A DNA stretch of 64,000 bases. Origin: Syntrophomonadaceae bacterium. GTDB lineage: Bacteria > Bacillota > Syntrophomonadia > Syntrophomonadales > Syntrophomonadaceae. The DNA is taken from the NCBI GenBank assembly GCA_012729715.1, contig JAAYCQ010000147.1:1624-65623 (forward strand), written 5' to 3'. The notes beneath the pieces are model-generated. The model saw only the letters and a program-made list of their open reading frames with translations. It was not told where the DNA came from and ran no database searches. Of the stretch, positions 12,780-43,528 are shown piece after piece; within the stretch, counting starts at the first letter, position 1; each line of letters begins with the position of its first letter. A program made the position numbers and the translations under genes.

Positions 12780-12975
12780 CTTCACCCTAGACGGGTACAC
12801 GGCAGCCTCCAGTGGGAAGTGTAGGGAACGGCCCCTGTGCCGTTCCGGTTTTCGTAATACCGGTGCAACTATTGTGTGTGCCTGGCACCCATAACGGGTT
12901 AGTTAGAAAATAGAACGGAATTAGACATTGAATACACTGACAAATTATGAATAACACTGAATTTTTAAAATATCA
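12780..12975. repeat. composite repeat: GTGTAGGG plus hairpin ggaacggc/gccgttcc, then a family A unit
   Basis: The hairpin at 12825-12846 is near-identical to those at 32698-32719 and 32817-32838. agaaaatagaac is at 12905-12916 and the word array gacattgaatacactga...aacactgaat is at 12924-12966. Confidence 0.8.
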
Positions 12976-21725: not shown

Positions 21726-22298
21726 GTGGAAAGCACTATTAAATTGACACCTCTAACCGAGCATGACCAGGTTTTGTTGGATAAAATCGAAAAAGAAGCC
21801 GGAACCAGCATCAACCTTTGCTACCAGTGCGGAAAATGTTCGGCCGGTTGTCCGGTAGGGTTTGCCATGGATTATACCCCCAGACAGGTTATCCGGCTGC
21901 TGCAGTTGGGTCTGGTTAATGAGGCGTTAAGTGCAGAGAGCATATGGATTTGTGCCAGTTGTGAAACCTGTTCCGCACGTTGTCCCCGGGGAGTAGATAT
22001 TGCTTCTCTAATGGATACCTTAAGACGGGAAGCACTGGACCGGGGTATAATCAACGATAAAAAAGTAGCCGTGTTTAACCAGGCCTTCCTGGCTGGGGTC
22101 AGAAATTTTGGTCGAACCTATGAAGCTGGATTATTACTTACCCATAACTTAAAGACTATGCAGCCTTTTAAAGATGCTGAACTGGGACTGCCCATGATGA
22201 GCCGGGGTAAGGTTCACCTGTTCCCCGCTAAAATCAAGGGCCGGGAACAGGTAAAGAAAATATTTGAACGTGCCGAAAAAATGAGGGGTGAACAGTAA
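21726..22298 (+). CDS. hdrC: heterodisulfide reductase subunit C-like protein
   Basis: Two CxxCxxCxxxCP ferredoxin motifs (CYQCGKCSAGCP and CASCETCSARCP). GTG start with RBS aaggagc. Confidence 0.88.
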   Translation: MESTIKLTPLTEHDQVLLDKIEKEAGTSINLCYQCGKCSAGCPVGFAMDYTPRQVIRLLQLGLVNEALSAESIWICASCETCSARCPRGVDIASLMDTLRREALDRGIINDKKVAVFNQAFLAGVRNFGRTYEAGLLLTHNLKTMQPFKDAELGLPMMSRGKVHLFPAKIKGREQVKKIFERAEKMRGEQ

Positions 22299-23513
22299 AT
22301 GAAACTGGCCTATTATCCTGGTTGTTCTTCGGAAGGCAGTGCTATTGAATATGACCTTTCCACTAAAAAAACTGCCCGCATGTTGGAGATTGACCTTCAG
22401 GAACTGGAAGACTGGAATTGCTGTGGGGCCACCTCGGCCCATAATACCAACAAACTATTAGCCGGGTCTTTGCCTGCTCGTAATCTGGCCATTGCCGAGC
22501 AGAATGGAATGGACACCATTCTGGCTCCCTGTGCCGCCTGTTACAACCGCCTGCATAGTACCGAACTGGCCGCACGTAAAGATAATGCTTTGCGGGAGAA
22601 GATTCAGGAAGTTATCGATATGGATTTTAAAGCCCTTACCACCACTATCTCAGTCCTGGAATGGCTGGATAATAAGGTAGGTATAGATAAAATAAAAGCC
22701 AAAGTGAGCAATCCTTTAAAAGGAATGAAAGCCGCCTGTTACTACGGCTGCTTATTGGTGAGGCCGGCTGAACATACCGGTTTTGACGATACTGAAGACC
22801 CGCAGAGTATGGATCGGATAGTCAGGGCTCTGGGAGCACAAACCGTAGACTGGCCTTATAAAGTAGAATGTTGTGGAGCTGCCCTGGCTACTTCCCGGCC
22901 GGAAATAGGGGCTAAAATGATTTATGAGGTAATTGCCAATGCCAAAGCTGCGGGAGCCGAGTGTCTGGTTACCGCCTGCCCGCTGTGCATGCTTAACCTG
23001 GACATGCGCCAGGCCGGGACTGAGAAGATGTTTAAGGAAAAATTAAACCTGCCGGTTTACTATGTAACCGAACTGGTAGCTATAGCCGGCGGTGCCAGTC
23101 CAGCAGAGGTAGGCGTAGGGAAACACTTTGTGGAAGCTATAAGCTATCTGCAATCCCTGCCCGCCCGGGCAGCAGAGATGGAAGCAGCAGAGCCCCGGCC
23201 GGTTAAAAAAGCCGCTAAAGCCGAGCCGGATGACAGTGATGGAGAAGCGGTTGCCAGTGAAGATGCCGAAGCCCTGCAGAAAAAGATAGATGCTATGATT
23301 AAAGGATTTAACAAAAACCCGGACAAAATGGCAGCTCGACTAATCGAAGACGAGGAAAGGGCAAAAGTACTGGTCGAAGTAATAAGCGGAGACGAGAAAA
23401 AAACCGCCCGCCTGGCTGAGCTAATGGTGACCGATAAAGAAAAAGCTACCAAAGCCGCAGAAGCCTTCGTCACCGGGGAGCTGAAGAAGAGAGAAAAAGA
23501 GAGTAAGGGTTAA
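22299..23513 (+). CDS. hdrB: heterodisulfide reductase subunit B-like protein with a C-terminal extension of about 115 aa
   Basis: Two CCG domains (WNCCGA..C..CY and VECCGA..CPLC). The last 115 aa or so are A/E/K-rich low complexity. Confidence 0.88.
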   Translation: MKLAYYPGCSSEGSAIEYDLSTKKTARMLEIDLQELEDWNCCGATSAHNTNKLLAGSLPARNLAIAEQNGMDTILAPCAACYNRLHSTELAARKDNALREKIQEVIDMDFKALTTTISVLEWLDNKVGIDKIKAKVSNPLKGMKAACYYGCLLVRPAEHTGFDDTEDPQSMDRIVRALGAQTVDWPYKVECCGAALATSRPEIGAKMIYEVIANAKAAGAECLVTACPLCMLNLDMRQAGTEKMFKEKLNLPVYYVTELVAIAGGASPAEVGVGKHFVEAISYLQSLPARAAEMEAAEPRPVKKAAKAEPDDSDGEAVASEDAEALQKKIDAMIKGFNKNPDKMAARLIEDEERAKVLVEVISGDEKKTARLAELMVTDKEKATKAAEAFVTGELKKREKESKG

Positions 23514-23528
23514 GGAGGGAGAAGGAAA

Positions 23529-25514
23529 ATGAGCAAACGGGTGGGGGTATTCGTATGTGAATGCGGAACCAACATAGCTTCCGTAGTAGATACGGCCCGG
23601 GTTGCCGAGGAAGCCGGTAAATTCCCCGGAGTTGCATTTGCCACTACTTATAAATATATGTGCTCCGATCCCGGACAGGAGTTAATCCGGAAATCCATCG
23701 AAGAACAAAAGCTGGAACAGGTAGTAGTAGCTTCCTGTTCGCCCCGCATGCACGAAAACACTTTCCGCAAAGCCGTCGCAGCGGGAGGTATTAACCCCTA
23801 TTTATTTGAGATGGTCAACATCCGGGAACAGGATTCCTGGGTTCATAGCGACCGGGAAGAGGCTACTCGCAAGGCTATAGACCTGGTTAAAATGGGAGTT
23901 AGCAAAGTCTTGCGCAACCAGCCCCTGCAGATTTCTACCATCCCTGTTACCAAGAGAGCCCTGGTAATAGGAGGCGGCATAGCAGGAATGCAGGCTGCTC
24001 TGGACATTGCTGAAGGGGGGCACCAGGTCATACTGGTAGAAAGAGAGGCCAGCATTGGCGGGAAAATGACCCAGCTGGATAAGACCTTTCCCACCATGGA
24101 CTGCGCCGCCTGAATAGGCACTCCCAAGATGGTTGCTGTGGCGCAGCACCCTAACATTGAACTGATAACTTATGCTGAGGTAACTGGTGTTACCGGTTAT
24201 ATTGGCAATTTTAACGTAACTATTAAGAAAAAGCCTAAATATGTAGACTGGGATCTCTGTACCGGTTGTGGTACCTGTATAGAAAAATGCCCAACCAAAA
24301 AGATTAAAGATGAGTTTGAACTGGGGCTGGGCCTGAGGACTTCCATTCATATGGTTTATCCCCAGGCGGTACCGGGTAAACCCTTTATAGATGCTGACAA
24401 CTGTACCAAACTGACTAAAAATAAGTGCGGTGTTTGTGAGAAGGTATGCCCAACCAAAGCCATTAAGTTTGACGATAAGGAAGAATTTATAAACAAAGAA
24501 GTGGGAGCCATAGTGATGGCTACCGGTTATGACCTGTTTAACTGGGAAGAAGCTTACGGGGAATACGGATATGGCAAATACCCGGACGTAATCAGCGGCT
24601 TACATTTTGAACGGCTGGTAAGCGCTGGAGGACCTACCGGAGGTAAAATTAAGCGGCCATCAGATGGCAAGGAACCAAAAAGCGTGGCCTTTATTAAATG
24701 TGTAGGTTCCCGGGATGATACCAAGGGTAAAAGCTACTGTTCCCGTGCCTGCTGTATGTATACCGCCAAACATGCTTATCAGGTGAAGGATAAAATACCG
24801 GACAGTGAAGCTTATGTATTTTATATGGACGTACGTACCGCGGGAAAGAACTATGAAGAATTTTATCAGCGCGCCCTGAATGCTGGGGCTCGATATATAA
24901 GGGGACGGGTAAGTAAAATCTACCCCCGCGGAGACCGCCTGGTGTTAAAGTCTGAAGACAGCCTGCTCGGTCGACCGGTAGAAGTAGAAGCCGATATGGT
25001 GGTACTGGCTACGGCCATGGTTCCTGCTGCCGGGTCTGATGAACTGGCGCGGACTGTAGGTTTTTCCATGGACAAGGACGGTTTCTACCAGGAAGCTCAC
25101 CCCAAATTACAACCGGTAGAGACTTTTGCTGCCGGGGTATTCCTGGCTGGAACCTGCCAGGGACCTAAGGATATACCAGATACAGTGGCTCAGGCCAGTG
25201 GAGCGGCAGCTAAAGTTCTGGGATTACTGAGCAAGACCAGGCTGGCTACCGAGCCTATGGTATCTGAAGTTGATATTAATAAATGTTCCGGTTGTGGCTT
25301 ATGTGTTCCGATTTGTCCTTACAATGCCATTACTCTGGAGGAAATTCAGGAGCGGGGTCATCATGGGCCTATTACTCGTAATGTAGCCGTGGTCAACAGC
25401 AGTCTTTGCCAGGGATGTGGGGCCTGTGTCCCCGCCTGCCGGACTGCCGCCCTGAATACCAAGGGCTTTACCGACGATCAACTGGTAGCGGAGGTGGATG
25501 CAATATGTCTATAG
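23529..25514 (+). CDS. hdrA: heterodisulfide reductase subunit A-like flavoprotein, with in-frame UGA at 24111-24113 read as selenocysteine
   Basis: ORFs 23529-24113 and 24129-25514 are in the same frame with only TGA between them. The joined sequence reads FPTMDCAA-U-IGTPKMV. This matches my recollection of the HdrA motif FPTxDCxxC(I/L)xxPK, with Cys at that position. FAD motif VIGGGIAGMQAA and four ferredoxin-type Cys clusters are present. Confidence 0.85.
24131..24150 (+). promoter_or_regulatory. candidate bacterial SECIS hairpin for hdrA
   Basis: Structure ggt(t)gctg-tggcg-cagcacc: a 7-bp stem with one bulge and a G-rich 5-nt loop. It starts 17 nt after the UGA. Confidence 0.55.
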
Positions 25515-25939
25515 ATAGTAAAACCAGCTGGCAGCCCCGGATAATTGTTTTTGCCTGTAATTGGTGTACCTATGCGGCAGCTGACCTGGCCGGTTTAAAC
25601 CATTTACAGTACCCGGCTGATGTCAGGATTATCCGCACCCCTTGCTCGGGGCGCATGGACCCTATGCTGGTAATGCGGGCCTTTAACCGGGGAGCCGATG
25701 GGGTTTTATTATCCGGGTGACACCCGGGCGAATGCCACTATGGTAGTGGCAATTACTATAACCGCCGCCGCCACACGATTATGAAAAGCCTCCTGGAATA
25801 TGTCGGAGTGGAGCCGGCGAGGTACCAGACTGCCTGGATATCAGGTGCAGAAGGGTTAAAATTTCAACAGACCATGCAGAAACTGGTTGATGATGTTAAG
25901 ACCCTGGGACCGAACAGAAAGCTGAGGGATGCCAGATGA
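25505..25939 (+). CDS. flxD: MvhD/FlxD-like [2Fe-2S] protein, with in-frame UGA at 25718-25720 read as selenocysteine
   Basis: The frame continues after the TGA as HPGECHYGSGNYYNRRR...WISGAEG. This gives LLSG-U-HPGECHY, which matches the MvhD motif SGCHxGDCHY. The start ATG 25505 overlaps the hdrA stop. The true stop TGA at 25937-25939 overlaps the next start (ATGA). Confidence 0.85.
25734..25750 (+). promoter_or_regulatory. candidate bacterial SECIS hairpin for flxD
   Basis: Structure gccacta-tgg-tagtggc: a perfect 7-bp stem starting 13 nt after the UGA. Confidence 0.6.
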
Positions 25940-26841
25940 ATGATATAACCTTAAAAATCAGAGAAATTGCTACCCGGCTTCTGCAAAACGGTCAGGTGGA
26001 TATATTTATGGGCTGGGAAAAAGGCCAGGAAGAATATACGACCCGTCCCTTTTTTGCCCGCCGGGTAGAAGATGTAGAAAAGCTCATTTTTAATGAATAT
26101 TCCATCCATAACTTGTCCAATGATTTGCTTAAATACCGGGACGGACAGGAGAAGATAGGTATTGTCGTTAAGGGCTGTGATTCCCGCGGAATAGTTAGAC
26201 TGTTGCAGGATGGGCAGATTAAGCGGCAGCGCTTATACATTGTCGGGGTAGCCTGCCCGGGCATGAAAGATCCGCTGCAGGCAGTTAAGGATAATTCTGG
26301 GTTTTTCCCCGCTACTACCAGCGGCGAACTGGCTAGAAAATGCAACGATTGCATAGAGCCTAATCCGGTTATTTATGACGAGTTAATCGGTGATAAACAA
26401 ACCCCGCGGGTAGGGCAGGAGCGTTTCAAGTTGGTTAAGGATATTGAAAACATGAGCGCGGACCAGCGTTATGAATTTTTTGAGGATGTATTTTCCCGCT
26501 GCATTCGCTGTTATGCCTGCCGCCAGGTATGTGTAGCCTGTAACTGCCGCACCTGCATATTTGACGAAATGAAACCCCAGTGGGTAGGGCGGGAAACGAG
26601 TATAAGCGATAACTTCATGTACCACCTGGTGCGGGCTTCGCATATGGCCGGGCGCTGCATCGAGTGCGGCGAGTGTGAACGGGTATGCCCGGTAAATATT
26701 CCCCTGATGCTTATAAATCAAAAACTGATTAAGGATGTAAATAAATTCTTTGGGCCTTATGAAGCAGGTATGGTTTACATTGAAGGGGCTAAACCCCCCT
26801 TAAGTTCCTACCAGGAAAACGACCCGGATAATTTCTTATAG
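25936..26841 (+). CDS. flxC: FlxC-like iron-sulfur protein
   Basis: Cys clusters CIRCYACRQVCVACNC and CIECGECERVCP. Positioned between flxD and flxB. Confidence 0.75.
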   Translation: MNDITLKIREIATRLLQNGQVDIFMGWEKGQEEYTTRPFFARRVEDVEKLIFNEYSIHNLSNDLLKYRDGQEKIGIVVKGCDSRGIVRLLQDGQIKRQRLYIVGVACPGMKDPLQAVKDNSGFFPATTSGELARKCNDCIEPNPVIYDELIGDKQTPRVGQERFKLVKDIENMSADQRYEFFEDVFSRCIRCYACRQVCVACNCRTCIFDEMKPQWVGRETSISDNFMYHLVRASHMAGRCIECGECERVCPVNIPLMLINQKLIKDVNKFFGPYEAGMVYIEGAKPPLSSYQENDPDNFL

Positions 26842-26854
26842 GGGGTGAAGATAA

Positions 26855-27877
26855 ATGCCGATATTGAGCAAGTCTAAAATAAAAGACGTCTTAAACCAGT
26901 TAAGTCAAAACGCGGAACTCTTTGTACCCCTGGCCCGGGGAGATGAAAGCGGCTTTTACTCCTGGAACAGCTATCAGGAGGGCAGTGACCGCTTGATGCT
27001 GGATGCATTAAATGTTTTATTGCCGCCCAAGAGTATAGTATTCCCGCAGACTGAGAGGATGTACAGTTTTACTGGCAATGGTACGACAGTAGAGATAAAG
27101 GAAACCTTTGAAAGCCCCCAGCCCAGGATAATATTTGGTTTGCGCGCTTGTGATGCGGCTGCTATTGCCTGCTTTGATGATGTCTTTCTAACCATGGGGT
27201 TTGTAGACAGTTTCTATCAGGCTAGAAGAGATAATACTACCATAGTGGCTCATGCCTGTTACCAGCCAGGTGCCAATTGTTTCTGTGAAGCTATGGGGGT
27301 TGACCCTACGGAGCCGGTAAATGCCGATGTTATTATTCGCGATACCGGAGATTCCTATATTTGGGAGAGTAAGACTGATAAAGGCGAAAAACTGAGTGCT
27401 GCCCTGGGAGCCCTGTTGGAAAACAAAGAGGCGAAATCACCCCAATTGCAGCCATTTAAACAGCAGGCTAATTATGAGGGAGTGGCAGAAAAACTTAAAG
27501 GTATGTTTGAAGACCCGATGTGGGAAGAACTGGCCTCAACCTGTCAGACCTGTGGTATTTGCACTTATGTTTGCCCTTCCTGTTACTGCTTTGATATCCA
27601 GGTAAAATCCTGGGGAGATGAAGGTTATCGTTTCCGCTGTTATGATTCCTGCATGTATTCTGAGTATACATTAATGGCGGGAGGTCACAACCCGCGCAGT
27701 AATGAACAGGAACGCTTCCGCAACCGTTTCCTGCACAAGCTGCAATTCTTCTCGGAGCGATATGGTAAACCCCTTTGTACCGGCTGTGGTAGATGCATAG
27801 TAGCCTGCCCGGTAGGAATTAACATTGTTCAGATTATAAATCAGGTTAAGGAGGCGGATACCAGTGTCAGAGCATAA
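26855..27877 (+). CDS. flxB: FlxB-like iron-sulfur protein (AsrA / sulfhydrogenase beta-like)
   Basis: Cys clusters CQTCGICTYVCPSCYCFD and CTGCGRCIVACP. Confidence 0.75.
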   Translation: MPILSKSKIKDVLNQLSQNAELFVPLARGDESGFYSWNSYQEGSDRLMLDALNVLLPPKSIVFPQTERMYSFTGNGTTVEIKETFESPQPRIIFGLRACDAAAIACFDDVFLTMGFVDSFYQARRDNTTIVAHACYQPGANCFCEAMGVDPTEPVNADVIIRDTGDSYIWESKTDKGEKLSAALGALLENKEAKSPQLQPFKQQANYEGVAEKLKGMFEDPMWEELASTCQTCGICTYVCPSCYCFDIQVKSWGDEGYRFRCYDSCMYSEYTLMAGGHNPRSNEQERFRNRFLHKLQFFSERYGKPLCTGCGRCIVACPVGINIVQIINQVKEADTSVRA

Positions 27878-28706
27878 ATGTAACTGTGAAAACCCACTGG
27901 TTCCAGGAGTAGTAGAAGTTATTGATATCAAAGACGAAACCCCGGATGTTAAAAGCTTTTTTGTCCGCAGTATCGGCGGGGGAGTACCCTTTGATGTTAT
28001 GCCCGGACAGCTGGGTATGGTATCCCTACTACCAGTAGGTGAAGGGATGTATTCCGTTTCCTGGCAGGAAGAACAAGAATACCTGCATTTTGCTATTAAA
28101 AGAGTGGGACTGATGACTAACGAGCTGCACCGCATCGAAGTAGGTCATCAGCTGGGAGTTAGGGGTCCATATGGAAATGGCTTCCCGGTAGAGGAGTGCA
28201 AAGGTAAGGATATGCTCTTTATTGCCGGCGGTATTGGCTTGGCACCCTTGCGTTCCTTTATCAAATACTGCTTTAAACATCGCCAGGACTATGGCAAGAT
28301 TCAGATAATATACGGCAGTCGCAGCTATGCTGACCTCTGTTTCAAAGATGAACTCTTTGAAAAATGGCCCCAGGAAAAAGATACTGAGGTTTACATTACG
28401 ATTGATAACCCGGAGGAAGGCTGGGATGGGCATGTAGGTTTTGTCCCCGCTTACCTGGAGGAAATAAACCCAGCCGCCGCAGGTAAGATAGCAGTTGTCT
28501 GCGGACCGCCGGTAATGATAAAATTTGTCCTGCAATCCCTGGAAAAGATGGGCTATACTGATGAACAGGTAATCAGCACTCTGGAAATGCGCATGAAATG
28601 CGGCATAGGTAAATGTGGTCGCTGCAATGTCGGCAGTCAGTATATTTGCCTGGATGGCCCGGTTTTTAACCTGGCCCAGCTAAAACAGCTGCCGCCGGAG
28701 TGGTAA
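27864..28706 (+). CDS. flxA: FlxA-like FAD/NAD(P)H-binding oxidoreductase with a C-terminal [2Fe-2S] site (PyrK/AsrB-like)
   Basis: Ferredoxin-reductase-type fold motifs are present (MLFIAGGIGLAPL, VCGPPVM). The terminal Cys cluster is CGIGKCGRCNVG. The GTG start overlaps flxB by 14 nt. Confidence 0.8.
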   Translation: MSEHKCNCENPLVPGVVEVIDIKDETPDVKSFFVRSIGGGVPFDVMPGQLGMVSLLPVGEGMYSVSWQEEQEYLHFAIKRVGLMTNELHRIEVGHQLGVRGPYGNGFPVEECKGKDMLFIAGGIGLAPLRSFIKYCFKHRQDYGKIQIIYGSRSYADLCFKDELFEKWPQEKDTEVYITIDNPEEGWDGHVGFVPAYLEEINPAAAGKIAVVCGPPVMIKFVLQSLEKMGYTDEQVISTLEMRMKCGIGKCGRCNVGSQYICLDGPVFNLAQLKQLPPEW

Positions 28707-29551: not shown

Positions 29552-29695
29552 TTAAAAAACTGAACCGCCATACAAATAACCCAGGTAGAAAACTCCTACA
29601 ATAGCGACAATATGAAGTATCCACCATCCAGCCTTAAGAAAATTAAATGTCCCTAAATCATAACCTTCCTCAGTTCTAATCTCGCGATCTTCCAT
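29552..29695 (-). CDS. small membrane protein, 47 aa (below the ORF-track cutoff)
   Basis: Hand translation gives MEDREIRTEEGYDLGTFNFLKAGWWILHIVAIVGVFYLGYLYGGSVF. A strong RBS AAGGAGG lies 9 nt upstream. It has one TM helix, and its own terminator follows 15 nt after the TAA stop. Confidence 0.6.
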   Translation of the reverse strand: MEDREIRTEEGYDLGTFNFLKAGWWILHIVAIVGVFYLGYLYGGSVF

Positions 29696-29825
29696 ATTAA
29701 ATTGCCTCCTTAAATTTAATTGCACTCGTTTTTCCGCGACTTAAGCGGCTATTTTCCAATTTACTCATAATATTTCCAATTTAGCAAAGCATATACATAA
29801 ACTTATGAAAAGTAAGGCGCGAGGG

Positions 29826-29896
29826 GTGACACAGGGGGACGTTTTTGGTGTGTCATTTCTTTGAAATGACACACCAAAAACGTCCCCCTGTGTCAC
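29826..29896. repeat. perfect 34-bp inverted repeat with a 3-nt spacer
   Basis: Arm gtgacacagggggacgtttttggtgtgtcatttc (29826-29859), spacer ttt, then the exact reverse complement (29863-29896). It is preceded by the hexamer array aagtaaggcgcgagggg and lies 116 nt upstream of the ATG at 30013. Confidence 0.95.
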
Positions 29897-30012
29897 ATAA
29901 AGGGCGAAGATACTCGTTAAAAAAATTTGACAGGCTAATTTTAATCGATAAAATATAGGCATATTAAAAATAAATTTGCACAAACCTGTGCACAAGGAGG
30001 GAGACATATCCA

Positions 30013-32694
30013 ATGTCAGACCTGCGTAATGATTTGCTTAACCCTACCTTAAAAGAAACACTGAGCATGTTTCAGCTGGATAAAAATTATATATCAGGAA
30101 AGGGGAGCTATTTGTTTGACGAGAAGGGCCGGCGCTATCTAGATTTTATTGCCCAATACGGAGCTGTTCCCTTCGGTTATAACCCCGAATTTATCTGGGA
30201 GCGCTTGCAGGAGGTACGTGAGAAATCCCTCCCTAGTTTAGTTCAGCCCTCCCTTCCTCAGGAAGCATTGAAGCTAGCTAATATGCTGGCAGATTGCAGC
30301 CCCGGGAACCTTTGTTATTGTACTTTCTGCCAGAGCGGGGCGGAAGCAGTGGAAACTTCTATTAAGCTGGCTCGATCCAGCACTGGCAGGAAAATTATTG
30401 TTTCTACTACTAATAGTTTTCACGGTAAAACTATGGGCGCTTTATCGGCTACTGGAAAGGAATCTTATCAAAAACCATTCTATGCACCTATTCCCGGTTT
30501 TCAAACTGTACCCTTCAATGATGTAGAGGCTCTGGAGCAGATATTTGCCCGGCAAGGTAACGATATTGCGGCCTTCATAGTTGAACCTATTCAAGGTGAA
30601 GGTGGTATAATCGAAGCCCGACCAGGTTACCTGACCGCTGCCCGGGAAATCTGCAGCGCTTATGGGGCTGCCTTGATACTGGACGAGATTCAAACCGGAT
30701 TAGGCAGAACCGGCAGGCTCTTTGCCTGCGAACATGAGGGTGTTGAGCCTGATATTATGTTACTGGCCAAAGCTCTGGGTGGTGGTTTATTGCCGCTGGC
30801 GGTATGTATCAGTTCTCCTCGGATATGGAACGATGATTTTGGTATGTTGCATAGTTCAACTTTTGCCAATAATAATCTAACCTGCTCTGTAGGCCAGGCG
30901 GTACTGGAAAAGCTGAACGCTGATGAGCAGCAGTTGGTACAGGAGGTAGCCAAAAAGGGTGATTACCTCCTGGATAAACTACGTCAACTAGCCGATCGTT
31001 ATCCCGATGCGGTTAAAGAAGTGCGGGGAAGAGGCCTGATGCTGGGACTGGAATTCCATGATCTTAAAGATTGTGGGTCCTATGATACGGCTTTTATAAT
31101 TAACGCTGGCGGGTTTACCGCATTGGTAACAGGCTTTTTATTAAATGTGTACAATATTCGCCTGGCTCCCTTTCTAAATGATTCCATGACTTTAAGATTA
31201 GAGCCGGCTCTAAATATTTCCTATGAGGAAATGGATTACGTTTTAAAAGCCCTGGATATAGTATGTAAAATTGTTAGTTACCGTGATTTTGCCCGCTTTT
31301 ATCACTACTTACTTGGAGATTATAGTAAACCTGAACAGATTATCGACTACCGTCCCCAAAGCCGCAAAACCAAATCTTCGCGGCTTAAACCAGGAGAGGA
31401 AGCCAGTGAAAAGTTTGCTTTTATCATTCATTATCCTGCCCCCGAAGACGTGGTAGCCAATAATCCATCGTTTGTTAAATTTAACCGGGAGGAACTGTAC
31501 CGCTTTCTGGACTGGCAGAAGGACAGCCCCGGGGTACAGATAGTATGCCATATGCCAGCCATCAAGTCACTGGATGGTAAAATTGCCGAAGGCTGGTTAA
31601 TCGGAGTGCCTTTTGGTGCCCGGGAAATGATGAATTTGCCCCGACAGGAAACCATAACCATGGTTACCGAAGCAGTAGACTTAGGCAAAGAGCTGGGAGC
31701 CAGGATAGTAGGGCTGGGGGCTTTGACTTCAGTAGTTACCCGTGGAGGCAGGTCGGTTCAGGATCGGGGGGTGGCTATAACCAGCGGCAATAGTTTTACC
31801 ACTTTAATGGCCATGGAGGCCCTATTTGCCGGTGCCGAAAAAATGCATATTAATCCTGACCATAGCAGGGCGGCTGTAGTTGGAGCTACTGGGTCTATTG
31901 GTCGTACCTGCACTTTAATGTTATCTGAACAATCCAGCCAGATTACTTTGCTGGGTAACCCACAGAGGCCAAATAACGGCAACCAGAGACTGGAGTCCCT
32001 CTTTTCTGAATTATTGGCCTACGCTTATAGGAGATTACAAAGCGGCCAAATGACAGGATTAAGCGGGTGGTTAAAACAAAGCCTGGATATGCTTATTAAA
32101 CATGATAGTTCCAGGGCCCGGGAATTTGCTCAGGTTTTGACTGATGGCAGTGACATATCTTCCCAATTACTATCCGATATATGTGACTACCTGGGAATTG
32201 AAATGCCGCTACAAGTCAGTTTGGATATCGATGCCACCTTACCCCTATGTGATATGATTGTTGCCGCCAGTAATTCTCCCGAATATATCATTTATCCCCG
32301 ACATCTTAAACCGGGAGCAGTTGTTTGCGATGTTGCCCGTCCGGCCGATGTTTCCCCCCAGGTTTTTAAAGAACGGGATGATGTTCTTATCCTGGAGGGT
32401 GGATTGGTACAGTATCCGGACAAGATATCTTTCGGCCCTAATCTGGGTTACCGGGACGGCGTAAATCTGGCCTGTCTATCGGAAACCGTACTGCTAGCCC
32501 TGGAAGGGGACTACAATGATTACAGCATAGGTTCCCACATACCCCTGGAGACGGTTAATTACCTGCGCAGCCTGGGTAAAAAACATGGCCTGGGCCTGGC
32601 CGGACTTAAAATGGATAACCAGGAAATAAGCGACCGGGAAATCGAAGCCATCTACCAACGTTCTTTACAGCTTAAGAAGGTTAATAATATATAG
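30013..32694 (+). CDS. fusion protein: class-III (omega) aminotransferase domain plus acyl-ACP/acyl-CoA reductase (cyanobacterial AAR-like) domain
   Basis: The N-terminal 430 aa or so carry SGAEAVETSIKLAR, FHGKTMGALS, IVEPIQGEGG, LDEIQTGLGRTG, LLAKALGGG (PLP Lys) and HSSTFANN. From about residue 476 the motifs match my memory of AAR: GLGALTSVVT (AAR ALGGFTSI), ITSGNSFT (TTGNTHT), AVVGATGSIGRT (VVGATGDIGSA), and NLACLSETVLLALEG (FACFAEAMLLEFEG, which holds the catalytic Cys). Confidence 0.8.
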   Translation: MSDLRNDLLNPTLKETLSMFQLDKNYISGKGSYLFDEKGRRYLDFIAQYGAVPFGYNPEFIWERLQEVREKSLPSLVQPSLPQEALKLANMLADCSPGNLCYCTFCQSGAEAVETSIKLARSSTGRKIIVSTTNSFHGKTMGALSATGKESYQKPFYAPIPGFQTVPFNDVEALEQIFARQGNDIAAFIVEPIQGEGGIIEARPGYLTAAREICSAYGAALILDEIQTGLGRTGRLFACEHEGVEPDIMLLAKALGGGLLPLAVCISSPRIWNDDFGMLHSSTFANNNLTCSVGQAVLEKLNADEQQLVQEVAKKGDYLLDKLRQLADRYPDAVKEVRGRGLMLGLEFHDLKDCGSYDTAFIINAGGFTALVTGFLLNVYNIRLAPFLNDSMTLRLEPALNISYEEMDYVLKALDIVCKIVSYRDFARFYHYLLGDYSKPEQIIDYRPQSRKTKSSRLKPGEEASEKFAFIIHYPAPEDVVANNPSFVKFNREELYRFLDWQKDSPGVQIVCHMPAIKSLDGKIAEGWLIGVPFGAREMMNLPRQETITMVTEAVDLGKELGARIVGLGALTSVVTRGGRSVQDRGVAITSGNSFTTLMAMEALFAGAEKMHINPDHSRAAVVGATGSIGRTCTLMLSEQSSQITLLGNPQRPNNGNQRLESLFSELLAYAYRRLQSGQMTGLSGWLKQSLDMLIKHDSSRAREFAQVLTDGSDISSQLLSDICDYLGIEMPLQVSLDIDATLPLCDMIVAASNSPEYIIYPRHLKPGAVVCDVARPADVSPQVFKERDDVLILEGGLVQYPDKISFGPNLGYRDGVNLACLSETVLLALEGDYNDYSIGSHIPLETVNYLRSLGKKHGLGLAGLKMDNQEISDREIEAIYQRSLQLKKVNNI

Positions 32695-32885
32695 TGGGGA
32701 ACGGCCCCCGTGCCGTTCCGTCATAGGTTAATTAATAAGAAAATAGAACAGGAATTAGAAGCGACAACCTGAATTGTGATACCCATAAGACGAAATCGCA
32801 GAACAATCATGTGTAGGGAACGGCCCCTGTGCCGTTCCGTCATGGGTTAGTAAATTCAGTGTATTCAGTGTCTATTATTTTGCTT
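32695..32885. repeat. two tandem composite repeat units (hairpin ggaacggc/gccgttcc plus family A unit)
   Basis: Hairpins are at 32698-32719 and 32817-32838. agaaaatagaac is at 32738-32749. An inverted word array aaattcagtgtattcagtgtctatt is at 32851-32875. Confidence 0.8.
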
Positions 32886-32938: not shown

Positions 32939-33361
32939 ATGGATCTAGCAGATATAACCATAAAAAAAGATGGCAAATGGTATTATGGTAAAGCGGAAAT
33001 GTTCAGGCGTAATATACTAAATATCCTGGCCCGTAATATCGAACGCCTTGAAGATGGCAGCTATTGTATAAAACTGGGCCAAGAGGAAAGTCAGATAACC
33101 GTTGAAGATGTGCCATTTCTGGCTACCGGATACCTGGAAGAGGATGATGGCAGGATTAAACTGGTCTTTCATGATCTACAAGAGATGTCCCTGGATCACG
33201 AAATCAAACTATATTTAAAAGGGGACGTTCCCTACATCAGCTTCAGGTGGGAAGCTGATACCCGTTTAAGCCGGGGCGTCTATTGGAAGCTCAGCGAATT
33301 CTTTGATTTCCGGGATGAAGAGATATATATCGTATTACCTCAACCGGTCAGCAATCACTAA
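32939..33361 (+). CDS. DUF1285-like protein
   Basis: Pattern I.KDGKWYY.G.E..R..IL..LARN.ERLEDGSY.I.....E..ITVEDVPF matches my recollection of the DUF1285 N-terminal domain. The start was moved to ATG 32939, which has RBS gaggaggg upstream. Confidence 0.6.
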   Translation: MDLADITIKKDGKWYYGKAEMFRRNILNILARNIERLEDGSYCIKLGQEESQITVEDVPFLATGYLEEDDGRIKLVFHDLQEMSLDHEIKLYLKGDVPYISFRWEADTRLSRGVYWKLSEFFDFRDEEIYIVLPQPVSNH

Positions 33362-33392: not shown

Positions 33393-34238
33393 ATGGCATT
33401 AAGGATTATTACTGATACATCCTGTGATTTGCCAGATAAAGAACTACAAAAGTATAATATTGAGATGATTCCGTTAAAGGTTACTTTTGCTAACGGGGAG
33501 ACTTTCCTGGATCGCTTCGAGCTGACTCCGGCTAATTTTGTTAAGAAGATGAAACTATCGCGTATATTACCCAAGACTTCGGCCCCTGACCCTCATACCT
33601 TTATGAAGTATTTTGAAAAAGGGTTAAGGGATGCTGGAGAAGTTCTATTTGTCAGTCTATCTTCAGGTCTTAGCAGCACATATCAAACTGCACAACTGGC
33701 CTGCAATATGTTGGGCAGTGAAAAAGTGAAAGTATTTGATACCCTTACTGCCTCCCTGGGAACTGGTATAGTAGCCATAAAAGCTGCGAATATGGCAGCC
33801 CAGGGCTTATCAGTGGATGCTGTTATAGAACGACTAACCCGGATTCGTGCCAGCCGGGAAGTTATTTTTACCCTGGATACCCTGGAAAATGTGGTCAAAG
33901 GGGGGCGTCTTAGCAGGATTGAAGGTTTAGCCGGAACATTGCTACATATTAAACCCATATTGAACGCAAATGATCGGGGCGTTCCTGAAGTTATCGAAAA
34001 GGTTAAGGGAAGAAAAAAGGCTATTCACCGCCTGGTAAGTTTACTGGGTGAGGTAACGGGTGGTTCGTTAAAGGACAGGTTAATAGGCATAAGCCATGTA
34101 AACTGTGAGGAAGATGCCATTCACCTGGGTAACGAAATTAAAAAGGATTATAACCTGACTAACCAAATCATAATTTCTGAAATGAGTGCCACTATTGGTA
34201 CTTATGCCGGGGAAGGTGGGCTCATGATAAATGTTTAA
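33393..34238 (+). CDS. DegV family fatty-acid-binding protein
   Basis: Contains IITDTSCDLP at the N-terminus, TSAPDP, LSSGLSSTYQTA and GTYAGEGG, which are typical DegV blocks. Confidence 0.9.
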   Translation: MALRIITDTSCDLPDKELQKYNIEMIPLKVTFANGETFLDRFELTPANFVKKMKLSRILPKTSAPDPHTFMKYFEKGLRDAGEVLFVSLSSGLSSTYQTAQLACNMLGSEKVKVFDTLTASLGTGIVAIKAANMAAQGLSVDAVIERLTRIRASREVIFTLDTLENVVKGGRLSRIEGLAGTLLHIKPILNANDRGVPEVIEKVKGRKKAIHRLVSLLGEVTGGSLKDRLIGISHVNCEEDAIHLGNEIKKDYNLTNQIIISEMSATIGTYAGEGGLMINV

Positions 34239-41784: not shown

Positions 41785-42759
41785 ATGAGCAAAATAGGAT
41801 TTACCACCAGCATACCGGTAGAGATTATCATTGCTGCCGGGAAAACCCCGCTGGACCTTAACAACATTTTTATATCAGCCCCCAAACCTCAAGCTCTGGC
41901 CGAAATTGCTGAAGAAGCAGGATATCCCCGCACTACTTGTGGCTGGATAAAAGGTCTGTATGCTGTAGCCTTAAACGAAGATTTGGAAGCGCTAATAGCA
42001 GTAATGCAGGGGGATTGCAGTAACACCCAGGCTCTAATGGAGACCTTGCAGCTTAAAGGCATAAACATTATCCCCTTTGCCTACCCCTTTGACCGTGACC
42101 CCGGGAGCCTGAAAATGCAGATAGAAAAGTTAATGAAATATTTTCGGGTTGATTGGGGACAGGTGGAAGAAACCAGGGAGTCACTAAAACCCGTACGTGC
42201 TCTATGTTCTAAATTGGATACTATGACCTGGAGGGACAACCTGGTCAGCAGCGAGGAAAACCATTACTACCTGGTTTCATCCAGCGACTTTAACCGCAAT
42301 CCCACTCAATACCAGGATGAACTGCAATTATTCATAGAGAAGGCCTATACCCGGAATCCTTACCGGGACAAGGTGCGCCTGGCCTATATTGGGGTACCAC
42401 CTATATTTACCGACCTCTACCAGGTGCTGGAGTCTTTGGGTGCTAGAGTAGTATATAACGAAGTACAGAGGCAGTTTTCCATGCCTGTGCCCAGTAATAA
42501 TATAGTGGAACAATATATTAAATATACTTATCCTTATGGGGCCTTTGCCCGCCTGGACGATATTCAGGCAGAAGTAGCTCGCAGAAATATTGACGGAATC
42601 ATACACTACACCCAATCCTTTTGTTACCGACAGATTGAGGACTTAATATTTCGGGAAAAACTGGACCTGCCCTTTTTAACCCTGGAAGGAGACCGGGCTG
42701 GTCGGGTTGATGCCCGCACCCGCATGCGGCTGGAAGCCTTTGTTAATATGCTAAGATAA
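41785..42759 (+). CDS. 2-hydroxyacyl-CoA dehydratase / benzoyl-CoA reductase BcrC-BadD-HgdB family protein (single subunit)
   Basis: 324 aa. The pattern IGFTTSIPVEII.AAG..P.DLNN plus C-terminal DGIIHYTQSFCYRQ...LDLPFLTLEGD is typical of this family. Confidence 0.75.
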   Translation: MSKIGFTTSIPVEIIIAAGKTPLDLNNIFISAPKPQALAEIAEEAGYPRTTCGWIKGLYAVALNEDLEALIAVMQGDCSNTQALMETLQLKGINIIPFAYPFDRDPGSLKMQIEKLMKYFRVDWGQVEETRESLKPVRALCSKLDTMTWRDNLVSSEENHYYLVSSSDFNRNPTQYQDELQLFIEKAYTRNPYRDKVRLAYIGVPPIFTDLYQVLESLGARVVYNEVQRQFSMPVPSNNIVEQYIKYTYPYGAFARLDDIQAEVARRNIDGIIHYTQSFCYRQIEDLIFREKLDLPFLTLEGDRAGRVDARTRMRLEAFVNMLR

Positions 42760-42778
42760 ACTATGAAAGGACAGGCTA

Positions 42779-43528
42779 ATGATTGGTATAGATCTGGGAT
42801 CCAGAAATGTTAAAATCGTAAGATTTGCAGCTGGAAAAATTATCGAAAAGAAGATTTATGATACTATTAAGTTTTATCGCCATTATGGGAAGAATGTAAA
42901 TAACCGGTTACAATTGGACTGGGAACGGCTGGAGCTGCCCCGGGAAGATATTGTTGCTACCGGCTACGGTAAAATGACTATAGAATTAGAAGGTGCAGTA
43001 CAAATACCAGAAATTCAAGCCCATAGCATAGGGGCAGTATATCAGAGCAAACTTGCTGATTTTACCTTACTGGATATTGGGGGACAGGATACCAAGGTAA
43101 TAAAAATTCGCAAATCCCGTGCCGTTGATTTTCTGACTAATGACCGCTGTGCTGCCAGTTCCGGGCGCTATATGGAAAACATGGCTGCCGTACTGGGAAT
43201 TAGCCTGCAGGAGTTAGCCTCTTATAATCAGGACCCGGTTGAATTAAGTTCCACCTGCGCTATTTTTGGGGAAACAGAAATTATTGCTCGTATAGTAGAA
43301 GGATATTCCTTGGAGCGGCTAGCAGCCGGGGTCAACTATGCTCTCTATAAACGTTTTTCTACTATGTTGAACAAACTATATAGTGATATTATTATCATGT
43401 CCGGCGGAGGTTCGCTAAACCAGGCATTAAGGGATATAATTGCAAGAGAAACCGGTTGCCAGGTGATAGAACTGGACGAACCCCTTTTCAATGGCGCCCT
43501 GGGCTGTTGCGTATATAATGAGGCGTGA
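42779..43528 (+). CDS. BcrAD/BadFG/HgdC-type activase ATPase
   Basis: Contains IGIDLGSRNVKIV, DIGGQDTKVI, CAASSGRYMENMA (cluster Cys region) and SGGGS. Confidence 0.85.
   Translation: MIGIDLGSRNVKIVRFAAGKIIEKKIYDTIKFYRHYGKNVNNRLQLDWERLELPREDIVATGYGKMTIELEGAVQIPEIQAHSIGAVYQSKLADFTLLDIGGQDTKVIKIRKSRAVDFLTNDRCAASSGRYMENMAAVLGISLQELASYNQDPVELSSTCAIFGETEIIARIVEGYSLERLAAGVNYALYKRFSTMLNKLYSDIIIMSGGGSLNQALRDIIARETGCQVIELDEPLFNGALGCCVYNEA

Follow-up and report, generated by a model that had tools for sequence, protein, structure and literature searches.

A transaminase-thioester reductase fusion protein of Syntrophomonadaceae with a predicted thioester-to-amine activity and a conserved putative operator

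The window analyzed here is a 64-kb stretch (64,000 nucleotides [nt]) from a Syntrophomonadaceae bacterium (assembly GCA_012729715.1, contig JAAYCQ010000147.1, positions 1,624 to 65,623). On its + strand lies a fusion gene (30013-32694) whose product of 893 amino acids (aa) combines a class-III aminotransferase, an ordered linker, and a thioester reductase resembling the acyl-ACP (acyl carrier protein) reductase AAR, as assigned from the open reading frame (ORF), Pfam, NCBIfam, phmmer, and AlphaFold2. The protein has both domains with their catalytic residues in a conserved single-polypeptide architecture and gives a confident two-domain model. The protein is probably of the TamH/TfFusion type, a bifunctional thioester reductase-transaminase that would convert an acyl thioester into an aldehyde and then into a primary amine.

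The ORF runs uninterrupted from the ATG at 30013 to the stop codon at 32692-32694 (893 codons), and the motifs quoted in a preliminary description of this DNA, which was made from the sequence alone, were all found in its product (LLAKALGGG, VGLGALTS, ITSGNS, VVGATGSIG, LACLSETVLLALEG, and PQSRKTKSSRLKPGEEASEK). That description had proposed an 893-aa fusion of a transaminase and an AAR-like domain, and both domains were confirmed by Pfam, phmmer, NCBIfam, and fold matching. AlphaFold2, with an alignment of 30 orthologues as input, modeled the full 893-aa chain with a pLDDT of 88.2 and a pTM of 0.82. None of K253, D224, Q227, R395, C821, and G624/G627/G630 varies in these 30 orthologues, which go down to 47% identity; for C821 and the three glycines, the same holds in a broader sample of 27 fusions with identities as low as 33%. 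Full-length homologues form >120 clusters at 90% identity (887-913 aa, 62-94% identity), in which the named members belong to Syntrophomonadaceae, Syntrophomonas, and Thermosyntropha. The fusion gene is also present in the closed genomes of Syntrophomonas erecta, Candidatus Syntrophocurvum, Thermincola potens, and Phosphitispora. That the ORF is real and no product of assembly follows from the presence of the identical 893-aa protein on 14 independent metagenomic contigs and from the abundance of full-length homologues. With the closed genomes in addition, the concern of a mis-assembly raised in the preliminary description is cleared.

The N-terminal domain is a pyridoxal phosphate (PLP) aminotransferase domain of residues 1-430 (30013-31302, + strand; Pfam PF00202) with D224, Q227, K253 (codon 30769-30771), and R395. 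Pfam Aminotran_3 (PF00202) matched residues 28-354 with an E value of 9.8e-89. This match and the invariance of K253 agree with the preliminary description, which had seen a class-III PLP aminotransferase in residues 1 to about 430 with the PLP lysine in LLAKALGGG. This motif is located at residues 250-258, with K253 as the PLP lysine, and aligns with CLAKALGGG of YgjG. D224 and Q227 belong to a DEIQTG motif and R395 to a TLRLEP motif; we take R395 to be the class-III aminotransferase arginine for the carboxylate of the amino-acid/keto-acid co-substrate. The nearest solved structures of the transaminase domain are the putrescine aminotransferase YgjG (E 1e-87) and the transaminase domain of PigE (E 2e-81), and Foldseek with the whole model gave the same two proteins, each with a target-normalised TM score of 0.83. 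The identity of a putrescine aminotransferase itself was rejected: the protein scored 335 bits against a cut-off of 612 for NF008570 and 293 against 659 for TIGR03372, below both.

The inter-domain segment (residues 431-465; 31303-31407, + strand), defined from the sequence and AlphaFold2, leads into the C-terminal domain through the basic stretch PQSRKTKSSRLKPGEEASEK (residues 447-466, nt 31351-31410), which the preliminary description had called a basic linker after the transaminase domain. The stretch was found there and is ordered in the model. Most of the segment was modeled as coil with a pLDDT of 91-94, and positions D445, R447, S456, L458, and E462 are conserved. Because the pLDDT exceeds 90 and these positions are conserved, the segment is, as modeled, an ordered connector and not a floppy linker.

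The AAR-like thioester-reductase domain comprises residues 466-893 (31408-32691, + strand), with the Rossmann motif at nt 31882-31902 and the Cys821 codon at 32473-32475, according to phmmer, TIGR04058, and Foldseek. Its motifs are VGLGALTS (residues 566-573), ITSGNS (589-594), VVGATGSIG (622-630, with GATGSIG at 624-630), and LACLSETVLLALEG (819-832), which holds C821. For the assignment of this domain, the C-terminal 463 residues were searched separately. In phmmer against PDB, this part matched PigE's N-terminal domain (E 2e-28) and AAR (6JZQ, E 2e-12), and C821, the Cys of LACLSE, aligned with FACFAE of AAR, which contains the catalytic Cys294, and with GCMAE of PigE. NCBIfam TIGR04058 matched the domain with an E value of 3.7e-17 but below the equivalog level (62.7 bits vs a cut-off of 449.7). 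The domain modeled alone had a pLDDT of 88.8 and a pTM of 0.89. The best Foldseek matches of this model were AAR structures (6JZZ/6JZY/6JZU; E 1e-18, target-normalised TM 0.75) and the second best was the terminal amidation domain (TAD) of CarI (E 3e-18, target-normalised TM 0.61-0.70, 14% identity), with a wide gap separating the AAR/TAD matches from generic Rossmann dehydrogenases. The preliminary description had recognized AAR motifs and a catalytic-Cys segment in the remaining 420 residues or so, and both phmmer and Foldseek agree with it. It had also named another dehydrogenase family lacking the Cys as a place where this domain might fall; the profile searches leave the domain AAR-like with its Cys.

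A four-helix insert follows Rossmann strand beta-2 at about residues 649-731 (31957-32205, + strand), as delimited by an alignment gap and AlphaFold2. About 80 residues past the Rossmann motif stayed unaligned against AAR and PigE, and the helices of the model span residues 653-676, 682-697, 700-711, and 717-727. An insertion of 50-60 aa had already been noticed here in the preliminary description. It is reflected in the spacing between the Rossmann motif and the Cys, which is 198 in the window protein, compared with medians of 187 and 136 for 57 fusions and 37 stand-alone AAR-like proteins, respectively. Judged by this spacing, the insert is a typical trait of the transaminase-reductase fusion clade.

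The architecture has already been described, and the window protein adds a member to it, with a 49%-identical relative already purified. The preliminary description knew of no characterised fusion, which does not hold: PigE (2021), TamH (2022), and PP_2782 with three thermophile fusions (2024) have been published. PP_2782 and its three thermophile homologues were presented as 'natural transaminase fusions' whose C-terminal domain was recognized as AAR and whose transaminase activity was determined, and the supplement of that report names Syntrophomonadaceae among BLAST matches (Prout, Hailes & Ward 2024, PMC10829540). TfFusion, one of the thermophile proteins, was purified and is an aldehyde/L-Glu transaminase that takes aliphatic and aromatic aldehydes; transaminase-only truncations of these fusions were active alone (PMC10829540). 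We transcribed the sequences of TfFusion, TmFusion, and PP_2782 from the supplement for comparison. TfFusion (Tfer_2018, Thermincola ferriacetica) is the nearest relative outside the Syntrophomonadaceae clade, with 49% identity in one 863-residue alignment that runs through the insert. The two proteins have similar lengths (895 and 893 aa), the same domain order, and the Cys at 824 and 821, and TfFusion is likewise encoded by a solitary gene. It differs in its lineage, in coming from a thermophile, and in having neither a DUF1285-like partner nor an upstream TGCACA-N4-TGTGCA. The identity to TmFusion was 49% in the transaminase domain and 35% in the reductase domain. PP_2782 (PpKTFusion, Pseudomonas putida KT2440) was 28% identical; it shares the domain order and both domain families with the window protein, whereas its transaminase domain is about 100 residues longer and its gene is inside the conserved PP_2777-PP_2787 cluster.

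An experimental precedent for the chemistry is PtTamH, which consists of an N-terminal omega-transaminase and a C-terminal AAR-like reductase with GxxGxxG and catalytic Cys887 (Richardson et al. 2022, PMC9594044). With the ANL-ACP protein TamA as its partner, it turns dodecanoic acid into dodecylamine via C12-ACP and dodecanal, with NADH and L-Glu (PMC9594044). The window protein has the same arrangement of transaminase, linker, and C-terminal AAR-like reductase with GxxGxxG and a catalytic Cys. By the published residue numbers (PMC9594044), the spacing in PtTamH is 180, similar to the 198 of the window protein, which points to an insert of the same kind. On the other hand, PtTamH is a 941-aa, NADH-specific, and C12-selective protein of the tambjamine YP1 cluster of Pseudoalteromonas tunicata, which includes TamA, whereas the window gene has no TamA-like partner or biosynthetic cluster. 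The authors also described the lining of the acyl pocket as the part where residues vary in this family (PMC9594044).

PigE, of the MAP branch of prodigiosin biosynthesis in Serratia, reduces a thioester and then transaminates the aldehyde, as shown in lysate (Couturier et al. 2021, PMC8341465). Both domains of PigE (PDB 4PPM) are the best or near-best PDB sequence matches of the window protein, its Cys296 aligns with C821, and the two-step logic is shared. Unlike the window protein, PigE has its reductase at the N-terminus, lacks the four-helix insert, uses a 3-acetyloctanoyl thioester, and is encoded in the pig cluster. The PigE model NF053554 was the best NCBIfam match (E 1e-164, 549.9 bits vs a cut-off of 850), but in swapped order, with the C-terminal part of the query matching profile positions 204-356 and the N-terminal part matching 385-729. 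The cyanobacterial AAR itself (PDB 6JZQ/6JZU/6JZY) resembles the C-terminal domain in its fold, the GATGxIG motif for NADPH, and the Cys in (L/F)AC(L/F)(S/A)E. It is, however, a 340-aa stand-alone protein of about 20% identity, without the 50-60-aa insert, that passes its aldehyde to the deformylating oxygenase ADO. In summary of the type, the window protein has the PLP-lysine domain and the AAR-like domain with GxxGxxG and Cys in a conserved single-polypeptide order; a nearby carrier or activating partner as in TamH was not found, and this trait is not universal in the type.

The characterised homologues AAR, PigE, and TamH are the basis on which we infer which way the reaction runs, which cofactor it uses, and that the aldehyde is channelled. 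In the proposed mechanism, an acyl thioester (acyl-ACP or acyl-coenzyme A [CoA]) would acylate Cys821 of the C-terminal AAR-like domain, and NAD(P)H bound at the GATGSIG Rossmann site would reduce the acyl-enzyme to a free aldehyde. The aldehyde would move to the N-terminal PLP domain, where Lys253 would hold PLP and Arg395 would bind the carboxylate of a donor such as L-Glu or L-Ala, and this domain would turn the aldehyde into a primary amine. The thioester-to-amine chemistry suggested in the preliminary description appears reasonable: it was demonstrated experimentally for PtTamH of the same architecture (PMC9594044) and reported for PigE of the reverse order (PMC8341465).

The upstream region of the fusion gene contains a sigma-70-like promoter, TTGACA-16 nt-TAAAAT (29927-29954, + strand), which was the best promoter-like match of the region with 11 of 12 positions. 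Read by eye, each Syntrophomonadaceae orthologue is preceded by a TTGACA-like box. Between the -10 box and the ribosome-binding site (GGAGGGAG, 29996-30003, + strand, 9 nt before the ATG, read from the sequence), there is a perfect palindrome, TGCACAAACCTGTGCA (TGCACA-N4-TGTGCA; 29977-29992), as a putative operator. It is the sole match with at most one mismatch within the window, where 0.14 is expected. The palindrome was found at the same upstream position in all five other Syntrophomonadaceae genomes examined (L001, L003, L004, L090, and L091), although the flanking intergenic DNA of those loci was not alignable. It was also found upstream of a 40%-identical fusion in a metagenome-assembled genome (MAG) of Bacillota (L008), and it is the single exact match in each of those six 18-20-kb loci. 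Upstream of the Thermincola and Phosphitispora fusion genes, the palindrome was not found. To our knowledge, it does not resemble the regulator consensus of Rex, CRP/FNR, FapR, or FadR. The palindrome, which is conserved and overlaps the promoter, is probably the operator of a dedicated repressor that controls expression of the fusion gene. Scanning the complete window with Rfam, in search of a leader or riboswitch that could point to a ligand, gave no match. Farther upstream, between a small, conserved 47-aa gene on the reverse strand (29552-29695) and the fusion promoter, we noticed an extended inverted repeat (29825-29898) that is near-perfect by eye, GTGACACAGGGGGACGTTTTTGGTGTGTCATTTC...GAAATGACACACCAAAAACGTCCCCCTGTGTCAC. 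Possible interpretations are a bidirectional terminator and a mobile hairpin element.

Downstream of the fusion gene, a 244-nt spacer contains two copies of a hairpin repeat, GGGAACGGCCCCYGTGCCGTTCCGTCAT, at 32697-32724 and 32816-32843 (+ strand; feature span 32697-32843). The repeat is GC-rich (GGGAACGGCCCCYGTGCCGTTCC...), its two spacer copies are 119 nt apart, and a third, diverged copy is present at 12824-12851. These repeats may be REP-like elements or transcript-end structures. The spacer is followed by a gene overlooked in the preliminary description, which lies between the fusion gene and a DegV gene and encodes a DUF1285-like protein of 140 aa (32939-33361, + strand; ATG at 32939 with an AGGAGG ribosome-binding site; Pfam DUF1285_N, E 5e-7; PDB 2RE3, E 0.003). 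Genes for proteins of 136-145 aa with 52-68% identity are directly 3' of the fusion gene in L001, L003, L004, L090, and L091, and the DUF1285-like gene is the only neighbour that is always beside the fusion in all Syntrophomonadaceae examined. Its homologues form 268 clusters, in which the named ones are all from Syntrophomonadaceae or Syntrophomonas except for one MAG labelled Deltaproteobacteria. From this sequence sampling, the family appears to be essentially restricted to the Syntrophomonadaceae lineage. Published DUF1285 structures offer at most a guess at a nucleotide-type ligand. A 149-aa gene after the Thermincola orthologue was considered as a DUF1285 homologue and rejected; its hydrophobic sequence suggests a membrane protein.

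The DegV gene (33393-34238, + strand; Pfam DegV, E 2e-77; TIGR00762, 283 bits) encodes a DegV/FakB-like fatty-acid-binding protein, which the FakB1 model scores below its cut-off. It begins 31 nt past the DUF1285-like gene and 699 nt past the fusion stop codon, and it is probably co-transcribed with the DUF1285-like gene, not necessarily with the fusion gene. DegV follows the fusion locus in three of the six Syntrophomonadaceae arrangements (window type, Syntrophomonas erecta, and Thermosyntropha); Syntrophocurvum, Syntrophothermus, one 3.8-Mb genome, and Phosphitispora lack it there. The 3.8-Mb genome has an unrelated DegV paralogue 4.6 kb upstream of the fusion on the opposite strand, Thermincola potens has a 31%-identical DegV paralogue two genes upstream, and Phosphitispora has no DegV within 8 kb. 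Altogether, of the nine genomic arrangements examined, five have a DegV gene within 8 kb of the fusion, at three different locations with respect to it. As a firm conserved partner, DegV was rejected, since it is not beside the gene in L004, L090, L091, and L089. Its proximity is suggestive of a lipid connection, not strong evidence for one. The preliminary description had taken the DegV gene as a sign of a lipid substrate; the gene is indeed 699 nt downstream, but a gene and the 244-nt spacer intervene, and the patchy occurrence across genomes leaves the lipid-substrate support weak.

In a sensitive search with the C-terminal domain against representatives clustered at 50% identity, 1,909 proteins were found at E <= 1e-10, and 77 of the best 150 representatives have a transaminase in front, including multidomain proteins of 1,400-2,600 aa. 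A scan of genome contigs with a fusion alignment responded to generic aminotransferase motifs and gave mainly plain transaminases, no Syntrophomonadaceae, and only seven usable full-length fusions. Around the outgroup fusions, including that of Metabacillus, no neighbour is shared with the window, so that the substrate is not indicated by them; the neighbours are DapB and an M28 peptidase in Limnochordia and VanZ and ProRS in Bacillota KA22. The fusion protein was not found in a search of S. wolfei proteomics.

The window is otherwise an ordinary Syntrophomonadaceae chromosome with acyl-CoA dehydrogenases, acetyl-CoA transferase, and thiolase, and it also carries an MFS-TetR-aldehyde dehydrogenase-Fe-ADH group, an Hdr/Flx-like cluster, and a glycine cleavage system. 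No polyketide synthase (PKS), nonribosomal peptide synthetase (NRPS), carrier protein, acyl-AMP (ANL) ligase, or pig/tam gene was found within the window or the orthologous loci. Among the Pfam-scanned neighbours in the window there was no ADO-like match, in a scan that included no search aimed at ADO.

Two fusion loci of other Bacillota have neighbours of their own. In Metabacillus rhizosphaerae (L013 8268-16211), a fusion 43% identical to the window protein is part of an apparent operon, with a flavin amine oxidase upstream and a DUF3419 protein, a Glu/Leu/Phe/Val dehydrogenase, and an MFS transporter downstream; TetR is among the neighbours. The DUF3419 protein presumably belongs to the BtaA family, and the dehydrogenase possibly serves the recycling of the amino donor. 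This context differs from that of the window and is more informative. In Phosphitispora sp. TUW77 (L089 3182-4291, - strand), a stand-alone AAR-like paralogue of 369 aa is encoded about 4 kb from the fusion, with a 305-aa gene that lacks annotation beside it. The paralogue shares 25% identity with the window protein over residues 461-651 of the latter, and its sole Pfam match, to Shikimate_DH, is weak.

Two further observations concern other parts of the window. In the Hdr/Flx-like cluster (21726-28706), the ORFs 23529-24113 and 24129-25514 are in-frame and split by a TGA (24111-24113) in FPTMDCAA-[TGA]-IGTPKM, and the Syntrophocurvum homologue of 23529-25514, annotated as a single product of 661 aa, carries a TGA at the corresponding position. 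From its sequence, 23529-25514 looks like an HdrA-like selenocysteine protein. At 41785-43528, there is a gene pair for a 2-hydroxyacyl-CoA-dehydratase D-component-like or double-cubane-like protein (324 aa) and a BcrAD/BadFG-type activase (249 aa), which is syntenic in other Syntrophomonadaceae loci.

Several points weigh against a bifunctional thioester reductase-transaminase. The chemistry of the window protein and its Syntrophomonadaceae orthologues is read across from characterised homologues. Among these, TfFusion was measured as a transaminase only (PMC10829540). TamH needs its dedicated carrier TamA and is inactive on C12-CoA (PMC9594044), and purified PigE gave no measurable NAD(P)H consumption (PMC8341465). 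Unlike for TamH, there is no carrier or ligase near the fusion in any of the nine genomic arrangements, and the DegV clue is inconsistent between genomes. With neither a dedicated carrier nor an acyl-activating enzyme encoded close by, the source of its substrate is probably a housekeeping pool of acyl-ACP or acyl-CoA in these fatty-acid-metabolising Bacillota. Since the link to DegV is weak, a fatty-acyl substrate is something we infer and not a finding.

The substrate may instead be an acyl-CoA that is short or carries functional groups (for example, a dicarboxylyl-, hydroxyacyl-, or aminoacyl-thioester), which would give a small amino compound, such as an omega-amino acid or amino alcohol, in primary metabolism. 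Such a role would suit a gene that is near-universal, with 62-94% identity, in one family and occurs in related Bacillota, outside natural-product clusters, and whose neighbours vary by lineage, the Phosphitispora orthologue lying among cofactor genes; the variability of the residues lining the acyl pocket points the same way (PMC9594044). We regard this as unlikely but still plausible, because the characterised relatives all use C8-C18 aliphatic chains, TfFusion takes aliphatic as well as aromatic aldehydes, and DegV genes occur within 8 kb in five of the nine arrangements. The enzyme may also run in the catabolic direction, in which an alkylamine or omega-amino compound would be deaminated and the aldehyde oxidised with NAD(P)+ via a Cys821 thiohemiacetal and released to CoA, feeding beta-oxidation. 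In chemical terms, aldehyde oxidation that forms a thioester is the AAR reaction run backwards. The hosts are specialised fatty-acid oxidisers, the window encodes acyl-CoA dehydrogenases, thiolase, and acetyl-CoA transferase, and among solved transaminases the nearest is YgjG (E 1e-87), a catabolic putrescine aminotransferase. A promoter that is apparently repressor-controlled is expected of an inducible catabolic gene, and no carrier protein or ligase is nearby to supply a biosynthetic substrate. On the other hand, the characterised AAR-like members (AAR, PigE, and TamH) are all reductive, and no amine transporter or amine-sensing regulator is conserved beside the gene, which makes the catabolic direction improbable.

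It is quite improbable that the C-terminal domain is no reductase in vivo but a degenerate or regulatory NAD(P)-binding module or a relative of TAD, leaving the protein as a transaminase only or with other chemistry. TADs have the AAR fold and an essential Cys, are proposed to form amides, and stand at the end of NRPS modules (bioRxiv 10.1101/2024.10.28.620694). The second-best Foldseek match to the TAD of CarI (E 3e-18), the activity of the truncated transaminase-only fusions, and the case of TfFusion, measured as a transaminase only, would favour this explanation. However, TAD similarity in sequence was insignificant (phmmer 9E4X/9E4S, E 0.11-0.13; 14% identity structurally), whereas that to AAR and PigE was significant. 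Neither the Cys nor any of the Rossmann glycines varies among the fusions aligned, the window gene has no NRPS context, and TamH of the same architecture is an active reductase. A PigE/TamH orthologue in a prodiginine- or tambjamine-type pyrrole alkaloid pathway would account for NF053554 being the best NCBIfam match (E 1e-164), and prodiginine-like antiSMASH matches are present somewhere in the thermophile genomes (PMC10829540). It is very improbable here, since the score of 550 bits is far from the cut-off of 850, the domain order is reversed, and no PigD, PigB, PKS, NRPS, carrier, or ligase genes are in the window or the orthologous loci. The hosts are strict anaerobes, from which we know of no such pigments. 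The chance that the long ORF is a mis-assembly or a frameshift joining two genes is negligible; it is already refuted by the 14 identical contigs from independent samples, the >120 full-length clusters, the closed genomes, and the conserved, well-modeled connector.

Beyond the bifunctional thioester reductase-transaminase as such, a more specific role can be suggested, to which we give little weight. The fusion would be a housekeeping, repressor-controlled enzyme of Syntrophomonadaceae and related anaerobic Bacillota, not one of natural-product synthesis, that connects the central acyl pool with primary fatty amines or amine-containing envelope lipids (or, in reverse, alkylamines with beta-oxidation), with the DUF1285-like protein as a partner binding a nucleotide- or CoA-type ligand. 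The acyl pool could be acyl-CoA of beta-oxidation, acyl-ACP of fatty acid synthesis (FAS), or acyl-phosphate on the DegV/FakB-like protein; the last option is included because of the analogy with the ArgC-ArgD logic of acyl-phosphate to aldehyde to amine.

In biocatalysis, the enzyme class is valued for making primary amines from activated fatty acids with a single protein, and the window adds to it a large, well-conserved mesophilic clade of fusions with >120 sequence clusters. The characterised members all serve pyrrole-alkaloid pathways, whereas the gene described here is a solitary, apparently repressor-controlled chromosomal gene that is kept across a whole family of obligate fatty-acid-oxidising syntrophs. 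We know of no amine product or amino-lipid from Syntrophomonadaceae. The point is a narrow one that neither opens nor settles a long-standing question, and the remaining interest is in the conserved putative operator and in the physiological role of the protein in syntrophic fatty-acid oxidisers. The identity of the substrate would reveal the role of such fusions outside secondary metabolism.

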